Shown piece after piece: positions 2,953 through 7,076 of a stretch of DNA of 8,925 nucleotides (position 1 is its first letter; the number at the start of each line of letters is the position of its first letter). The translations under genes and the position numbers were made by a program. A model generated the notes under the pieces. It was not told the origin of the DNA. It worked only from the letters and a program-made list of their open reading frames with translations, and searched no databases. Source of the DNA: a virus (Duplodnaviria; Heunggongvirae; Uroviricota; Caudoviricetes); IMG/VR virus record IMGVR_UViG_2681813316_000018; one strand, written 5' to 3'.

Positions 2953-3342
2953 TCAGGCGGCTGCACCCGCCGTTTTCTCGTACTTACTGATAGTGATCTC
3001 GACCTTCCCTTTCGGGATAACCGGTCCCCACTCCACCAGCATTCTTTTCACCTGACTGTCGTCTTCCCACACACCCGCGTGGGTCAGGGCGTCAAACAGC
3101 GCCTTGTTATAGTTGTCCAGATCGCGGATCCTGTTATCCGGAGGAAACAACACGATCTCCACTGAAGCAGGTGCCGACGTTGGTTTCGGCAGACGACGTA
3201 ACTGCTCAATGATGGCGGCACACGCCGCGCTCTGAAATTTTCGCCCCGCCTCGCTTATCAGGCTCTTACCAGCAAATGCCCCTTTGTTGGGGTGTCGCCA
3301 GTACGTGTTCACGCTGGGCGGAAAAGGCAGTATTAGCTTCAT
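2953..3342 (-). CDS. rusA: Crossover junction endodeoxyribonuclease RusA (Holliday junction resolvase)
   Basis: 129 aa; catalytic-region motif RIRDLDNYNKALFDALT matches the RusA acidic DxD...D signature; start ATG overlaps the upstream MTase stop (ATGA). Confidence 0.85.
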   Translation of the reverse strand: MKLILPFPPSVNTYWRHPNKGAFAGKSLISEAGRKFQSAACAAIIEQLRRLPKPTSAPASVEIVLFPPDNRIRDLDNYNKALFDALTHAGVWEDDSQVKRMLVEWGPVIPKGKVEITISKYEKTAGAAA

Positions 3343-3992
3343 GCCACCATCTCCCTGACCAGTTTTTCCGCCTGCTGGCGAACCTGCGCCAGAAATGCCT
3401 CACCACATGCCTCAAGTTCATCGCGCCCGATGTAGCTGATTGCCGGTCCCTTCCAGGTCTTGTCGAAAACAGCAATAGCACCAGCGAAGAAAGCACCTGT
3501 TGGCACCTGCTTTTCGTCTTTCGGGATAAACCAGGCAGGCAGTTCAAAACCAATACGCCCGCGAATAAAAGCAATATGATCTGCACCTTCCGGCCACCAC
3601 ACTTCGCCGGTGGCAGCTTTGATCAGGAAAACATAGCGCCCGCCTTTATCACGCATGGCACTGGCATGCTTCATGATGTAACGCATGCCGGTGATGTATT
3701 GCCCCTCATGCTGACTGGCGCGGCTGTACGGGGGATTGCCAAAGGCAGCACCTTTAAGCTCCGCAAGACGTTCTGACCAGTCATGCGCCAGCGCGTTGTC
3801 TTCCGCCGTGTAATACGCGGCACATTTGGCGTTATCACCGTCAGTGAACAGATCCAGAACAAACGGACCAAACAAGGTGTTAATTCCCCAGAAAATGTTG
3901 TCCGGCGTGCGCCACTGATCGCCCACTTCCTTCAGTTCATGGGCTGGTTTGTTCCGCAGTTCTACCAGCGCCTGGCAATATTTATTACTCAT
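3339..3992 (-). CDS. Phage Dam-family DNA N6-adenine methyltransferase
   Basis: 217 aa; motif IV GNPPY (AAFGNPPYSRA) characteristic of N6-adenine methyltransferases; size and position typical of phage Dam-family MTases; start ATG overlaps the stop of the upstream 30-aa ORF (TAATG). Confidence 0.75.
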   Translation of the reverse strand: MSNKYCQALVELRNKPAHELKEVGDQWRTPDNIFWGINTLFGPFVLDLFTDGDNAKCAAYYTAEDNALAHDWSERLAELKGAAFGNPPYSRASQHEGQYITGMRYIMKHASAMRDKGGRYVFLIKAATGEVWWPEGADHIAFIRGRIGFELPAWFIPKDEKQVPTGAFFAGAIAVFDKTWKGPAISYIGRDELEACGEAFLAQVRQQAEKLVREMVA

Positions 3993-4084
3993 TAAGCCCC
4001 CACGTAAAAAGCATCCGCAATGTCTCCGGAAGTACAGCCCGGATGGGCTTCAATGAATTTCTGAACGTCATTTAACAGACTCAT
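3992..4084 (-). CDS. Small ORF (30 aa, MSLLNDVQKFIEAHPGCTSGDIADAFYVGA) between the replication gene and the MTase
   Basis: Not in the ORF track (too short). ATG 2 nt after the O-like stop, G-rich SD-like GGGGGTGA just upstream, stop overlapping the MTase ATG; fills the whole intergenic gap, consistent with translational coupling. Confidence 0.3.
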   Translation of the reverse strand: MSLLNDVQKFIEAHPGCTSGDIADAFYVGA

Positions 4085-4086
4085 GA

Positions 4087-5079
4087 TCACCCCCTGAATC
4101 CTGCCGGGATCTGGCTGTAGTCCACGTTGTCGTAACTGGCTTTGAAGTACGGGTCTTCACGTTTTTCTGTGTGCGTGCTGACGGACGGCGATAAGCGCAG
4201 GGAAAGCTCATCCCATTTTTCCCGCAACTTCGACGGGCTGAGCACGTTACGGCACCAGAACGGATCGCGGCTGACGCGGCTGTACATCTCGCAGATTTGT
4301 TTGTGAGTACGACCATCCTGCACACACATCAGGCGAATTTCGTTTGCCCATGCTGTCCAGTTCGGTTCTTTGGGACGAACCACCTCGCCGTCACATTCGG
4401 CGGCCTGCTCGTACAGGGCGATGATTTTTTTCCAGAGCCACTGTGCGCAGGTCAAATCATCCTGCGTTCCCCACTGGCGCTTTTTAGGGCTGAATACAAC
4501 CGCATCAGGATGGCGAGTTAAAAACTCCTGTTCAGCCGTTTGCGTGTCCGGTTGCGAAGCGTCCGGACGAGAAGAGGTTTTATTCTCTGTAGTAATCTCT
4601 GTTGTATTCTCTGTAAGATCATTGGGCCATTTTGACCCGATGACAGCGTGTCGTTTTGAACCAATGGATCGTATCATTTTGCGCCCATCCATCAGGTCAC
4701 TTTGACCCGATGGAGAAGTGCATTTTGACCTGATGGATTCGTTCACTTTGACCTCTTCTAAAAGCTCACTTTCATAGTTGATCGTGTAGAAGTTGGTCAT
4801 GTCACGCTTCGATTTATTGAGTTGCTCGCGACGCAAAACCCCAAGTGATTTCAGGCTTGCAAATGTGCGTTTCAGAGTGGACTCTGACCAGAACGGAAAC
4901 TGCTCCAGCCACTGTTCTGTCGTGTTATAAACCCAGCGAATTCCGCCATGCTCAGTGCCTGAATTCGTTTCATTCAGCCAGTAATGAAGCTGCTGCAACA
5001 CAATTGCCTCATTCAGACCAATACGGCATGCAAGATCACGATTTATCACAATGGGCTGGGATGTCATTAACAGGCTCAT
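4087..5079 (-). CDS. Putative replication initiator (lambda O-like in architecture; iteron array inside its coding sequence)
   Basis: 330 aa; SD GAGG 6 nt upstream of ATG; first large gene after the cro/regulator cluster; a low-complexity linker (TENTTEITTENKTSS) next to an internal direct-repeat array as in lambda O/ori. No sequence similarity to lambda O itself was recognised; function is inferred from position and iterons. Confidence 0.55.
   Translation of the reverse strand: MSLLMTSQPIVINRDLACRIGLNEAIVLQQLHYWLNETNSGTEHGGIRWVYNTTEQWLEQFPFWSESTLKRTFASLKSLGVLRREQLNKSKRDMTNFYTINYESELLEEVKVNESIRSKCTSPSGQSDLMDGRKMIRSIGSKRHAVIGSKWPNDLTENTTEITTENKTSSRPDASQPDTQTAEQEFLTRHPDAVVFSPKKRQWGTQDDLTCAQWLWKKIIALYEQAAECDGEVVRPKEPNWTAWANEIRLMCVQDGRTHKQICEMYSRVSRDPFWCRNVLSPSKLREKWDELSLRLSPSVSTHTEKREDPYFKASYDNVDYSQIPAGFRG
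4628..4755. repeat. Iteron array (putative replication origin): six direct repeats with 23-bp periodicity, core TTTGACC(C/T)GATGG
   Basis: Repeats start near 4628, 4652, 4675, 4698, 4721 and 4744 (cattttgacccgatga, cgttttgaaccaatgga, cattttgcgcccatcca, cactttgacccgatgga, cattttgacctgatgga, cactttgacctc); flanked at 4570-4620 by an AT-richer stretch with ttctctgta repeats. Confidence 0.65.
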
Positions 5080-5248
5080 GACCGACCTCTATTTCCCTGA
5101 ATTTACGACGAAACTGTTCGAGCGGACTGAAGCATTCATGTTCATAGCCTTCACGGAGGTAGATAACCCGTTGTGTTTCCGGCTCCAAACGAATGACTCT
5201 GACGGGCACTCCGTAGTGATCTTTGAACCAGCGGTTAACTTGTCGCAA
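5036..5248 (-). CDS. Small hypothetical protein (70 aa, TTG start); possibly a DUF4222-like prophage protein
   Basis: Strong SD AAGGAG 8 nt upstream of TTG at 5248; protein-like composition ([37 protein letters not shown]); overlaps the O-like start by about 44 nt and conflicts in frame with ORF 5089-5427. DUF assignment is an unverified recollection. Confidence 0.4.
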
Positions 5249-5427
5249 AGGACTGTCTCCTTCTGCCGGTTGAAATCACCCACAGCCCACTCTGCAAAGC
5301 TGTGGGTTACAATTTCCCTGTCACCTGGTACATTCACTGCATAGCAATATTCCACCTTCGCTTTTCCACCCGGTACAGGAAGCGCAATCAGTTGCGAGCG
5401 ACGGTAGTGTGTTGTTAAACTGTTCAT
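5089..5427 (-). CDS. Hypothetical ORF (112 aa) coupled to the upstream regulator gene; conflicts with ORF 5036-5248
   Basis: ATG overlaps the upstream TGA (ATGA) with SD GGAG upstream; N-terminal about 45 aa looks protein-like, C-terminal part is Ser/Thr-rich and low-complexity; a 9-bp-stem hairpin (5278-5307) lies inside it. Confidence 0.3.
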
Positions 5428-5981
5428 GCGTTAGTTTCTCCACAACCAGAAGCAATCGACGCCACGACGCCCGGAGCTGCACACTCGCGGGCGTTACTCT
5501 CTTCTGGAGCGCAAAAGATTTTGTAGACCAGTGCTGCATGCTCCTGGAGCTTCGAAATTGACAGATACAACTCATCATTAATTGCTGTCTGCTCGTGTGG
5601 CTCCACTACCCCATCTTCGATTGCCGAACGAATCTGCTTTGAGTAACTCCCGATCTGTTCGATGACTTCCAGCAGGCGCTGGTTTATATCGGCGTTGTCC
5701 ACATCCTCGACGTCAGGAAGAGACACAAAGACGCCATTTGCAGACTGCGCCACAGCGTCAGCAATGAAGTGAGTTCCACCAGCACGTTGCAAAATCATTG
5801 CCCATCCCAGCGGGAAAATCTGATCGCCATCGGCACGAAGGCGGTTAAATAATGCGTTCTCTGTTACATCCAGCCAGTCAGCTGCTTCAGCGTAACCACC
5901 CGGCAACGTTGCGATAGTTTTTCTGACAGCTTTCACGTACCACTCAGGCTGTTTTTCTACTTTCCAGTGATGCTTACCCAC
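5424..5981 (-). CDS. Putative early regulator in the cII position (YdaT-like; functional analogue of CII by position)
   Basis: ORF immediately downstream of the Cro/YdaS-like gene; start placed at GTG 5981 (SD AAGGAG about 7 nt upstream) rather than ORF-track ATG 6014, which has no SD and overlaps cro. YdaT-like identity is inferred from synteny, not from recognised motifs. Confidence 0.5.
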
Positions 5982-6003
5982 GGCTATCTCCTTAAAACTG
6001 TGG

Positions 6004-6252
6004 TTACTTTCCATCTGATAAGTCTTTAATCTTTTGAAAAATATCTGGACGTAATTTTTCTTTTGATACGCCAGTGGTCATTTCAATAAATATCGAGAGC
6101 TTTGCAGGGGGACGCTTTTCTCTGTTCAAACAGTTCCAGACATGTTGTTGCTTTACTAAACGACCACTGCTGGCTGTGAGCTTCCGAGCCAATTCTGATT
6201 GACCACCAGCCAGAGCGATTGCCTCTGATAAGGCTAATTGCTCAGGTGTCAT
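6004..6252 (-). CDS. Cro-like HTH repressor (YdaS/Cro family)
   Basis: 82 aa; SD AGGAG 6 nt upstream; motif AGGQSELARKL...LRPDIF matches the YdaS/Cro-family pattern as recalled; divergently transcribed from the CI-like gene across an operator-rich spacer. Confidence 0.8.
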   Translation of the reverse strand: MTPEQLALSEAIALAGGQSELARKLTASSGRLVKQQHVWNCLNREKRPPAKLSIFIEMTTGVSKEKLRPDIFQKIKDLSDGK

Positions 6253-6389: not shown

Positions 6390-7076
6390 GTGAAAACATT
6401 GGCAGAAAGACTAAAAAGCGAAAGAGAAAAAGCAGGAATGAGTCAGGCGCAACTAGCTGAAAAAATTGGGCTTTCACAACAATCCGTAGCGAAAATCGAG
6501 AATGGAGAAACTCAACAGCCTCGGAAAATTAAAGAGATTGCTAAAGTGTTAGGGGTTTCTCAAAAGTGGTTGCAATTGGGAATTGAGGATAACGCGTCTT
6601 TCCCAGACCTTGTTGTAAAGGAGGCTGAAAGTACAGCATTAGATCCTGACATTTTTGCAAACATTCCAGTCCTAGATGTCGAGTTATCAGCGGGTAATGG
6701 ATGTTTGGCTGAAATAGTTGAATCAACTGTAGACTGGTTCCCGCTAAGAAGGATTGATTTAAGAAAAGCTGGTGTATGTGTCTCCAATGCAAAGATCGTA
6801 AAAATTTGGGGCAATAGTTTACTACCTGTACTTAACAATGGAGATTTTGTTGCTGTTGATGTTTCCCAAACGGTTCCTATTCGTGATGGGGATCTTTATG
6901 CCATACGTGATGGCGTATTACTTAGAGTTAAAATATTGATCAATTTACCTGACGGTGGTCTGATTCTAAGAAGTTTCAATAAAGATGAGTATCCAGATGA
7001 AATACTCACCTTCGAAGATAGGCGTTCCAGAATTCACGTTATAGGTAGAGTATTCTGGTCATCGCGCACTTGGTAA
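6390..7076 (+). CDS. CI-like prophage repressor (N-terminal XRE-type HTH, C-terminal S24/LexA-like autopeptidase)
   Basis: 228 aa, GTG start with SD GAGGGGGA; HTH (MSQAQLAEKIGLSQQSVAKIENG); Ala-Gly cleavage site (LSAGNG); Ser (WGNSLLP) and Lys (LRVKIL) catalytic-dyad positions as in LexA/lambda CI. Confidence 0.85.
   Translation: MKTLAERLKSEREKAGMSQAQLAEKIGLSQQSVAKIENGETQQPRKIKEIAKVLGVSQKWLQLGIEDNASFPDLVVKEAESTALDPDIFANIPVLDVELSAGNGCLAEIVESTVDWFPLRRIDLRKAGVCVSNAKIVKIWGNSLLPVLNNGDFVAVDVSQTVPIRDGDLYAIRDGVLLRVKILINLPDGGLILRSFNKDEYPDEILTFEDRRSRIHVIGRVFWSSRTW

Follow-up and report, generated by a model that had tools for sequence, protein, structure and literature searches.

Background

An iteron origin of replication that lies inside the gene of its own initiator is a textbook arrangement, known from phage lambda. 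Related arrangements include those of the Stx phages 933W and P27, which carry six iterons of graded affinity (PMC7466680), and those of Firmicute phages in which the origin lies within the gene of the origin-binding protein, namely the "replisome organizer" genes represented by gene 38 of SPP1 (oriL) and ORF20 of 80alpha; a deletion of the latter is not complementable in trans, and its embedded origin was inferred genetically (PMC5499656). A similar system is found in the RepA_N theta plasmids of Firmicutes, such as pSK41 and pTZ2162 (PDB entries 4pta, 4pt7, 4pql and 5kbj), and in RepA of the Vibrio PLE. The iterons of RepA_N plasmids are semi-palindromes that converge on an A-tract (PMC7145576), the N-terminal domains of their initiators form tetramers, and the boxes of pSK41, which have the same core and period as the array described below, bind protein (PMC5703833).

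Some lambdoid phages have an O homologue as their only replication gene. Such O-only modules are reported for phage LLS and for 34 of 314 lambdoid phages of Enterobacterales in a 2025 study whose available text gives their gene content and states that the mechanism of O-only replication is not understood and has never been studied; it names mEp460_4F5 as the closest relative of the LLS repressor, explicitly as an unstudied phage, and that text does not describe the origin, the iterons or the nature of the N-terminal domain of O-only phages (PMC12315714). The gene analyzed here has a 98%-identical relative in mEp460_4F5.

We analyzed 8,925 nucleotides from a Caudoviricetes virus (IMG/VR record IMGVR_UViG_2681813316_000018; hereafter the window), in which an open reading frame and its translation define a 330-residue, "O-like" replication initiator gene at positions 4087-5079 on the minus strand. 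Judging from the sequence and its relatives, we consider it highly probable that positions 4579-4758 are the vegetative origin of an E. coli lambdoid prophage, embedded in its own initiator gene. The prophage itself could be defective.

Layout of the iteron array

The original prediction for this locus was a replication origin made of six direct repeats of a 13-nucleotide core spaced by 23 bp. Six repeats are present: cores of the form CAYTTTG start on the plus strand at 4628, 4652, 4675, 4698, 4721 and 4744, at intervals of 24, 23, 23, 23 and 23 bp, the predicted spacing being exact for all intervals except the first. Description as direct repeats of a 13-mer holds less well, as TTTGACCYGATGG occurs without mismatch only twice, once with one mismatch and once with two, in addition to one inverted copy at about 4687-4701; the copies at 4675 and 4744 match it only in part. 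The actual unit is a 23-bp dyad with the consensus CATCnGGTCA-AAW-TGACCnGATG, whose natural register begins at 4620 and not at 4628, and six such abutting units occupy positions 4620-4758 inside the minus-strand initiator gene. The inverted copy was considered as a separate, reversed iteron and rejected, since it belongs to the dyad at 4690-4712, whose left arm it forms.

For an assessment independent of the window we used a weight matrix (PWM) trained on relatives only, from which the window was excluded, and scanned both strands of the 8925 bp. Exactly six sites score above 8, all within 4620-4758, with scores of 27.0, 13.2, 19.7, 27.1, 26.8 and 26.6 in coordinate order from 4620; the maximum in shuffled windows (n=200) averages 7.8 and peaks at 18.7. 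The scan revealed no second phased cluster of sites elsewhere in the window, and a candidate seventh unit at 4759-4781 (CACTTT...) was rejected with a score below 8. Read along the gene strand, the array starts with unit 1 (4736-4758, GAAGAGGTCAAAGTGAACGAATC, PWM score 26.6, codon frame 0), which is farthest from the 12-mers described below, followed by unit 2 (4713-4735, CATCAGGTCAAAATGCACTTCTC, 26.8, frame 2) and unit 3 (4690-4712, CATCGGGTCAAAGTGACCTGATG, 27.1, frame 1), an inverted repeat and the best of the dyads, complementary at 9 of 10 arm positions. Unit 4 (4667-4689, GATGGGCGCAAAATGATACGATC, 19.7, frame 0) is degenerate and contains GATC at 4667-4670, unit 5 (4644-4666, CATTGGTTCAAAACGACACGCTG, 13.2, frame 2) is the weakest and lies 24 bp from unit 6, and unit 6 (4620-4642, CATCGGGTCAAAATGGCCCAATG, 27.0, frame 2; 8 of 10 arm positions complementary) adjoins the 12-mers. 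Units 1, 2, 3 and 6 are strong, and the weak units 4 and 5 are the two central repeats that had been described as degenerate, correctly so.

The periodicity of the segment is pronounced. Within 4620-4781 the self-match is 0.554 at lag 23 and 0.517 at lag 46, compared to a background of ~0.25; none of 5000 shuffles match the periodicity of the array at any lag from 10 to 40, and the segment has the best self-match score of the whole window. Counts of the motif are less informative: window-wide, TTTGACCYGATGG with up to 3 mismatches yields 11 matches where 4.6 are expected (2 of 200 shuffles equal this number), and CAYTTTGACC with up to 2 mismatches yields 16 where 18.3 are expected. The signal of the array is one of clustering and phasing and not of motif count. 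Tandem Repeats Finder reports just 2.5 copies (4697-4754) because the central units are degenerate. A literature search with the motif strings returned only unrelated primer or sequence matches, and a paper on Bacillus phage B83 was set aside as a parallel, its subject being ParG-type partition iterons.

The 12-mer block and the GATC junction

Immediately 3' of the array in the direction of transcription lie three tandem 12-mers of the type ACAGAGAWTAC (ACAGAGAATACA, ACAGAGATTACT and ACAGAGAATAAA; 4579-4616, minus strand), a proposed unwinding or loading element that encodes TENT-TEIT-TENK. They constitute the minimum of GC content (0.30 at 4580-4619), in agreement with the AT-richer stretch that had been predicted beside the array. 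The block is found in 111 of 133 distinct relatives, and its 12-bp tandem structure is kept from Firmicutes to Proteobacteria at a fixed position beside the iterons. Its entropy is low at all three codon positions and its synonymous choice is frozen, with GAG used 315 times and GAA 4 times, and ACA or ACT 574 times and ACC or ACG once; consequently, the block is likely an unwinding element.

Inspection of the sequence places a GATC (Dam site) at 4617-4620, at the junction of iterons and 12-mers. A GATC at this junction was also seen by eye in most of the Enterobacterales relatives inspected and in relative L006. As for enrichment of GATC in the array, there are two sites only in the window, and for this reason the conserved GATC of the junction is all that could speak for control of the SeqA or Dam type.

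Selection at the DNA level

Units 1 to 6 fall in codon frames 0, 2, 1, 0, 2 and 2, and all three frames are therefore used. Entropy by codon position was calculated from 55 distinct colinear relatives. In the N-terminal domain it is 0.29/0.15/0.85 for the first, second and third positions, while in the iteron cores it is flat at 0.27/0.31/0.25, the third positions being lower (p=5e-8). Conserved positions track the 23-bp phase rather than codon position, and the CA, the TG and the TG and CA that meet at unit boundaries are nearly invariant. The use of three reading frames and the conservation in 23-bp phase identify the array as a DNA-level site rather than an amino-acid repeat.

The array in related genes

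Comparison with the iterons of relatives had been proposed as a check, and its outcome is favorable: phased CAnnnTG cores at 22-24 bp are kept at the same place in the gene in 93 of 109 distinct arrays (about 85%). The array-bearing relatives come from Enterobacterales, Pseudomonas, Comamonas, Acinetobacter, Staphylococcus, lactobacilli, Bacteroidota and others. Staphylococcal relatives such as L132 also have GGTCAAAATGACC dyads with 12-mers behind them, and the N-terminal domain of the initiator recurs in several S. aureus phages (96, 42E, phiIPLA88 and others). Among complete E. coli genomes, 1838 of 5426 carry related origin sequences.

Across phyla about 85% of distinct arrays keep a CA-AAW-TG center of the unit, and the flanking arms change in a compensatory manner. 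When the arrays are grouped into 26 specificity classes, complementarity holds at 54 of the 78 flank positions, compared to 29.6±3.5 after shuffling, in statistics that ignore phylogeny; none of 10,000 shuffles reach this number, and each of the three flank pairs shows all four Watson-Crick pair types. The base pair next to the core also varies with residue 67 of the initiator: Ser occurs with T·A in 55 of 62 arrays, Asp with G·C in 18 of 19 and Lys with A·T in 3 of 3. The mutual information of this residue is 0.95 bit and that of the next column 0.61, again in statistics that ignore phylogeny.

The initiator protein and its neighborhood

The initiator matches phrog_391 ("replication initiation O-like", E=7e-102). 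Pfam and NCBIfam contain no family for it, Pfam yielding none at E<=1 for the N-terminal domain or the whole protein; sub-threshold hints were to the Cdc6_C winged helix and to Slx4. The earlier description of the gene as O-like is accurate for the C-terminal domain (residues ~179-297; 4189-4545, minus strand), which is homologous to that of lambda O: BLASTP aligns residues 147-294 with lambda O 135-270 at 33% identity (E=1e-26), and the AF2 model has helices at residues 179-296. This domain has no Pfam match. The DNA at 4087-4589 is ~97% identical to O genes of the SfII/SfIV type, whose N-terminal half differs; the SfIV genome paper does not mention an origin. Between the domains lies a predicted disordered linker, residues 111-177 (4549-4749, minus strand), without secondary structure and with pLDDT of 28-43 in the full-length AF2 model, in whose coding sequence iterons and 12-mers are embedded.

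The description as O-like does not extend to the N-terminal domain (residues ~1-105; 4765-5079, minus strand), a predicted iteron-binding winged helix. Its predicted structure has a DnaD-like winged-helix fold for which the RepA_N plasmid initiators are the best structural match. The initiator does not match PF04492 (Phage_rep_O) at E<=1, where lambda O as positive control scores 5.7e-36, nor PF06970 (RepA_N) at E<=1, where pSK41 Rep scores 2.5e-32. Alignment of the N-domain profile by hhalign gave probabilities of 0.24% with lambda O and 0.07% with pSK41 Rep, both weak negatives since the templates were single sequences. A sequence search of PDB returned nothing with the single protein, and no Rep with the N-domain profile. 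The suggested link of this domain to RepA_N is one of predicted fold and site anatomy only.

The order of genes in the window is cI, cro, cII and initiator, followed by dam (PF05869), rusA, KilA-N, DUF968 and Q. No gene for a P-type helicase loader or a helicase was found in the window, and the same applies to relatives L001-L005. With a C-terminal domain of the lambda O type and no P partner, the helicase-loading step of lambda cannot be copied here.

Proposed mechanism and alternative explanations

We infer binding, unwinding, helicase recruitment and origin activity for this locus, as follows. Each dyad would be bound by a dimer of the N-terminal domain, a monomer on either arm, with reading and bending of the invariant CA/TG and of the A-tract at its center as occurs in the Rep boxes of RepA_N plasmids; residue 67, with which the recognition helix starts, may read the base pair that flanks the CA/TG core. 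Four strong and two weak units in 23-bp phase would then assemble an O-some-like nucleoprotein complex, which would strain and open the adjoining 12-mer block, and the C-terminal domain would recruit host replication proteins, a phage helicase or loader gene being absent.

A more far-reaching reading, which we offer tentatively and consider rather unlikely, is that the 12-mers, present beside unrelated N-terminal domains, are more than an AT-rich region and form a sequence-specific element for both unwinding and helicase entry, read by the initiator or by a conserved component of the host primosome, and that the family is a widespread, undescribed hybrid class of phage replicons. The 12-mers would be recognized probably as single-stranded DNA, and O-only phages could in this way load the host helicase without a phage-encoded loader. 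The hybrid class would join an iteron-reading domain resembling RepA_N to a universal 12-mer element and to host-interaction domains that can be exchanged, and a simple code of origin specificity would lie in residue 67 (Ser, Asp or Lys).

The repeats might instead be a by-product of coding, that is, a low-complexity or duplicated peptide linker born of slippage, without a role in DNA. The region does encode a disordered, poorly conserved linker, and natural in-frame deletions of four units exist, which shows that the linker peptide is dispensable; a natural deletion of 31 codons marks such a loss as tolerated. Coding-driven amino-acid repeats had been named at the outset as the finding that would overturn the prediction, and they are ruled out by the three frames, the 23-bp phase and the covariation: 23 is not a multiple of 3, the wobble signature is gone with conservation in 23-bp phase in its place, and the dyad symmetry covaries across phyla. 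As the synonymous choice in the 12-mers is also frozen, and the relatives, with N-terminal domains just 42-68% identical, do not share the array by very recent descent, we regard this explanation as extremely unlikely. Dyad covariation by itself fits binding of a protein dimer and a nucleic-acid hairpin alike, and the dyads could act as RNA, a series of mRNA hairpins with control over translation, the pausing of ribosomes or the stability of the message; a unit can fold into a stem of as many as 10 bp closed by a 3-nt loop, and compensatory changes in the arms are also expected of an RNA stem. This, too, is very unlikely in our estimate, because mismatches of the G·U type are not enriched on the sense strand (103 G/T vs 210 A/C), strict phasing at 22-24 bp, invariant CA/TG and an A-tract characterize sites of protein-DNA contact, one base pair varies together with a residue of the protein, and protein binding is established for the pSK41 boxes, whose core and period are the same (PMC5703833).

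Two other explanations accept a DNA-level role and assign it differently. The array may be bound by the initiator and yet be mainly regulatory, as an autoregulatory roadblock or operator or as a site of copy control or incompatibility (by handcuffing or titration), with replication starting elsewhere. Plasmid iterons also mediate autorepression and handcuffing and RepA_N N-terminal domains tetramerize (PMC5703833), and the array sits inside a transcribed gene where bound protein could block transcription. We find it improbable that this is the main role, given that the array is paired with a low-GC 12-mer block immediately downstream in 111 of 133 genes, that the origins of lambda and pSK41 are laid out with this pairing, that the window has no other phased cluster of sites, and that the two closest analogues use the same array as their origin (PMC7466680, PMC5703833); an array can regulate and also serve as an origin. 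Alternatively, the 12-mer block, and perhaps the array, might be kept mainly as a recombination joint, a patch of homology through which phages exchange modules, N-terminal ones for specificity and C-terminal ones for interaction with the host. The mosaic boundary of the gene sits at the 12-mer block, with 4087-4589 ~97% identical to SfII/SfIV-type genes and 4581-4620 97.5% identical to a stretch of Stx-phage O genes that have unrelated N-terminal domains and iterons, and the same N-terminal domain is joined to at least two types of C-terminal domain. However, a homology patch need not be the GC minimum and has no need of a 12-bp tandem structure across phyla or of a fixed place beside iterons, and in pSK41 the corresponding position is taken by an AT-rich tandem repeat of a different kind, suggestive of a functional requirement. 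A role mainly in recombination is accordingly improbable, and as a second role it can coexist with unwinding.

If the locus is the vegetative origin, as we consider highly probable, it is a candidate origin of the O-only lambdoid module in a common E. coli prophage. Its defined dyads, 12-mer element and domain boundaries make O-only replication directly testable and raise the question of which host factors stand in for lambda P. The family comparison ties origins of lambdoid phages to those of Gram-positive RepA_N plasmids through 23-bp phasing and the GTCAAAAnGAC core, provides a candidate one-residue specificity code (residue 67), and brings to light a cross-phylum 12-mer element. Practical uses would be automatic annotation of origins in thousands of prophages and prediction of incompatibility groups in phage replication.

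Comparison with known systems

The layout mirrors that of the lambda origin, as had been predicted. An iteron array and an AT-rich element lie between the two domains within the initiator gene, the units spanning codons 108-153 and the 12-mers codons ~155-167; in lambda O the iterons are at codons 116-144 and are followed by an A/T tract. The lambda origin likewise has a central place in its initiator gene, where it separates the coding parts of the N-terminal DNA-binding and the C-terminal domain, and its iterons also have internal dyad symmetry and an A/T-rich element downstream in the direction of transcription (PMC7466680). The gene context (cI, cro, cII, initiator) is shared, and the number of six iterons is that of Stx phages 933W and P27. 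The iterons had been predicted to differ from those of lambda in both sequence and spacing; the sequences are indeed unrelated (TCCCTCAAAACGAGGGA in lambda, GGTCAAAATGACC in the window), but the spacing is alike, with starts 20, 24 and 23 bp apart in lambda. The window further differs in its N-terminal domain, which in lambda is of the Phage_rep_O family, in having a defined 12-bp tandem repeat as the AT-rich element, and in lacking P or any other helicase or loader gene.

In SPP1 and 80alpha the likeness is the embedded origin, and likeness in the family of the N-terminal domain is seen in other S. aureus phages; unlike the window, Firmicute phages with such embedded origins have a helicase loader, and sometimes a helicase, beside the initiator. 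The O-only lambdoid modules, as far as the available text describes them, resemble the window in having a single O homologue without helicase or loader (PMC12315714).

RepA_N plasmids differ from the window in being plasmids and not phages, and in membership of PF06970, outside of which the window initiator falls by sequence. Their C-terminal domain is the genus-specific, DnaG-binding Bac_RepA_C, whereas that of the window is of the lambda O type; pSK41 Rep matches PF18008, and the C-terminal domain of the window has no such counterpart in Pfam. The downstream repeats have a period of 12 bp in the window and 15 bp in pSK41 and are unrelated in sequence. In both systems the initiator is modular, with an N-terminal domain for specificity and a host-specific C-terminal domain, and the origin lies within rep, in DNA that encodes a dispensable linker (PMC5703833). 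The window has semi-palindromic iterons on an A-tract, placed centrally in linker-coding DNA, as RepA_N plasmids do. In the rep gene of pSK41, GTGTCAAAAGGACAC boxes begin 408 nt into the gene, recur with a spacing of exactly 23 bp and precede AT-rich tandem repeats, and the core GTCAAAAnGAC is common to the iterons of pSK41 and of the window.

Array of six dyad units

Inside the initiator gene, six units occupy positions 4620-4758 at successive spacings of 24, 23, 23, 23 and 23 bp. No other segment of the window is as periodic: the array has a self-match of 0.554 at lag 23 against a background of about 0.25, a value that none of 5000 shuffles equalled over the lags 10 to 40. A weight matrix trained on relatives only and scanned over both strands of the 8925 bp returned exactly six sites, which are the six units, and none outside them. 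Four units are strong (scores 26.6-27.1), the unit at 4667-4689 is intermediate (19.7) and that at 4644-4666 is weak (13.2); the maximum score in shuffled windows averages 7.8. Periodicity and scan thus bear out both the six repeats of the original prediction and the degeneracy it ascribed to two central ones. The array was also correctly placed inside the initiator gene, except that this gene lies on the minus strand, and the predicted 13-mer core, although present, makes up just the right-hand half of the unit, a 23-bp dyad that reads CATCnGGTCA-AAW-TGACCnGATG on the gene strand. The arms are complementary at 9 of 10 positions in the best-kept dyad (4690-4712) and at 8 of 10 in the dyad at 4620-4642.

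Repeats that merely follow from the encoded peptide can be ruled out, because a 23-bp period does not fit a whole number of codons, the units fall in three codon frames (0, 2, 1, 0, 2 and 2) and codon entropy is flat. In 55 distinct relatives that are colinear and 74-100% identical, the N-domain has the usual codon signature, with entropies of 0.29, 0.15 and 0.85 at codon positions 1, 2 and 3, whereas the iteron core has 0.27, 0.31 and 0.25, and its third positions are 3.4-fold less variable than those of the N-domain (p=5e-8). Conservation in these relatives tracks the 23-bp phase, the CA, the TG and the TG|CA at the unit boundary being almost invariant. By these sequence patterns, the units are DNA-level elements.

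Arrays and arm covariation in relatives

We collected 160 loci encoding relatives of the N-domain from viral and genome collections. Nearly all contain an array with a period of about 23 bp that starts ~300-340 nt into the gene, and phased CAnnnTG cores recur every 22-24 bp in 93 of 109 distinct arrays. Two of the loci (L090 and L091), from metagenome bins labelled Veillonella parvula and Bacillota, have initiator sequences of the E. coli type that share 75% identity with the query and are probably mis-binned enterobacterial prophage contigs.

The CA-AAW-TG centre is constant, and the flanking arms vary by lineage yet remain mutually complementary: GGTCA/TGACC in E. coli, Staphylococcus and lactobacilli, GGGCA/TGCCC in Pseudomonas and some Enterobacteriaceae, GTGCA/TGCAC in Comamonas and Hydrogenimonas, GGACA/TGTCC in Pantoea and Mixta, and further GATCA/TGATC, GCTCA/TGAGC, TATCA/TGATA and TGCCA/TGGCA. 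Counted over 26 specificity classes, flank positions are complementary in 54 of 78 cases, compared with 29.6±3.5 when partners are shuffled (54 was reached in 0 of 10,000 shuffles), and each flank pair shows all four Watson-Crick pair types. Such covariation is predicted for a symmetric dimer reading two half-sites. The same complementarity would also be expected of an RNA hairpin, but the mismatches show no excess of the G·U type (103, against 210 A/C). We consider it highly probable that the array is an initiator-binding origin, and most of the remaining doubt concerns a mainly regulatory role. The original reading of an origin within the initiator gene is therefore supported, with corrections to strand, dyad unit, spacing and N-domain.

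Residue 67 (codon about 4879-4881), where the predicted recognition helix begins, stands out in its mutual information with the base pair beside the CA/TG core (0.95 bit, next column 0.61, with kinship ignored). Ser accompanies T·A in 55 of 62 cases, Asp G·C in 18 of 19 and Lys A·T in 3 of 3. As an association between aligned sequences, this makes the residue a candidate specificity determinant and only a lead.

The 12-mer block

In gene orientation the last iteron is directly followed by a GATC (4617-4620), which forms the junction with three 12-mers, ACAGAGAATACA, ACAGAGATTACT and ACAGAGAATAAA (4579-4616). This block is the GC minimum of the gene (0.30), in agreement with the AT-richer stretch predicted near the repeats. 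It occurs in 111 of 133 distinct relatives, Firmicutes included; the 12-bp tandem repeats, ACAGAGAWTAC, are conserved from Firmicutes to Proteobacteria and are found in most of the fetched loci L008-L167. The block encodes T-E-x-T, always in the same frame, so that frame alone cannot tell protein-level from DNA-level constraint, but synonymous choice can. For Glu the block uses GAG 315 times and GAA 4 times (947:1354 elsewhere in these genes), and for Thr it uses ACA/ACT 574 times and ACC/ACG once (834:1039 elsewhere). In close relatives all three codon positions are nearly invariant (entropies 0.03, 0.27 and 0.11). The same 40 bp, 97.5% identical, are carried by O genes of Stx phages (L006 1501-1540) that have an unrelated N-domain and unrelated repeats of the GGGAAAC type and are followed by a helicase gene. 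We infer that the block may be an unwinding or loading element. The junction GATC recurs at the same place in most Enterobacterales relatives, and the phage's own Dam methylase gene (3339-3992) closely follows the initiator gene; methylation might conceivably be linked to origin firing.

The initiator and its gene

The 330-aa initiator (4087-5079, minus strand) matches phrog_391, "replication initiation O-like", at E=7e-102. In the full-length AlphaFold model, a linker of residues 111-177 lacks secondary structure (pLDDT 28-43) and separates the folded N-domain (residues ~10-105) from the helical C-domain (~179-297); the linker-coding DNA (~4549-4749) holds the iterons and 12-mers. The O-like assignment holds for the C-domain, a homologue of the lambda O C-domain (33% identity, E=1e-26), and not for the N-domain, which has no match to the Phage_rep_O family. 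The initiator matches no family in Pfam or NCBIfam, RepA_N included, where the positive controls succeed (lambda O matches its own family at 5.7e-36, pSK41 Rep at 2.5e-32); hhalign of the N-domain against single-sequence templates was negative for lambda O and pSK41 Rep alike. A model built with 58 diverse homologues makes the N-domain a winged helix (pLDDT 85.5). Two protein searches gave about 1900-2500 homologues of this domain (4756-5079) at E<=1e-5, 42-68% identical across phyla and with a near-invariant IGLNEAIVLQQ motif, and yet neither Pfam nor NCBIfam has a model for it.

The gene is mosaic, with its joint at the 12-mer block. Positions 4087-4589 are ~97% identical to SfII/SfIV/SKA5-type O genes, whose 5' halves differ, whereas the iteron-bearing 5' half (4590-5079) is 98-99.6% identical only with mEp460_4F5 and 77-82% with HannyBb-type and Klebsiella phages. 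Many relatives combine this N-domain with another C-domain, PF09524. Natural variants (E. coli proteins P0073-P0076 and P0080, 290 aa) have an in-frame deletion of 31 codons; these 93 bp equal 24+23+23+23, that is, four units, which leaves about two. The lone 24-bp spacing is what makes a four-unit deletion in-frame, and the deletions indicate that iteron copy number varies and that the linker peptide is dispensable.

Genomic setting

The window is the early-right region of an E. coli lambdoid prophage. A cI-like repressor gene (6390-7076) is on the plus strand; on the minus strand are a cro-like gene (6004-6252), a cII/CP76-like gene (5424-6014), a 112-aa gene of phrog_1170 (5089-5427) between the latter and the initiator, and, after the initiator, dam, rusA, a KilA-N gene, DUF968 and Q. 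The 112-aa gene has no match in Pfam or NCBIfam and is conserved in mEp460_4F5. That phage has an additional 162-aa hypothetical gene between initiator and dam (L001 2037-2525), which the window lacks, the gap here being only about 95 bp. Several complete E. coli chromosomes carry segment 4570-4800 with 100% identity, and 1838 of 5426 complete E. coli genomes contain related sequences, which are mostly annotated as "hypothetical protein" and reach >=95% identity in 226 of these genomes.

Neither the window nor any of five annotated relatives (L001-L005) has a P-like, DnaC-like or DnaB-like gene after the initiator. The replication module (3339-5079 in the window) is confined to the O-like initiator, and the gene after it is dam, not a loader or helicase gene. 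Such O-only modules were counted in 34 of 314 Enterobacterales lambdoid phages in a 2025 study, according to which none of them has been studied and their mode of replication is not understood (PMC12315714). Iterons at this place would be expected by a specialist; undescribed in the literature searched are a RepA_N-like design in a lambdoid phage, a 12-mer element shared across phyla and the loader-less context.

Comparison with known origins

The annotated lambda iterons start at 39034, 39054, 39078 and 39101, span O codons 116-144 and are followed by an A/T tract. Their spacing of 20, 24 and 23 bp means that the spacing found here is not unusual, contrary to the original prediction that it differs from lambda's. 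In lambda the O C-domain binds P, whereas the window has a lambda-O-type C-domain without P. The graded units have a precedent in Stx phages, where O binds well to the four of six iterons closest to the AT tract and weakly to the distal two, which are nevertheless essential (PMC7466680).

[quoted passage not shown] In the staphylococcal plasmid pSK41, the N-domain of Rep recognises four Rep boxes in the middle of rep, and its binding is affected by the A/T centre of the box; the central segment of the protein, encoded by the ori, is a dispensable linker, and the host-specific C-domain binds DnaG (PMC5703833). Read directly, pSK41 has four GTGTCAAAAGGACAC boxes exactly 23 bp apart, the first 408 nt into rep, and then three AT-rich 15-bp repeats. 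Period, layout and the core GTCAAAAnGAC are common to the window and pSK41, and by this analogy the element would work like lambda ori and a RepA_N origin alike. At the sequence level its N-terminus belongs to neither initiator family; the element combines, as a mosaic, a reading head and iterons that resemble those of RepA_N origins, a conserved 12-mer block and a tail of the lambda-O type.
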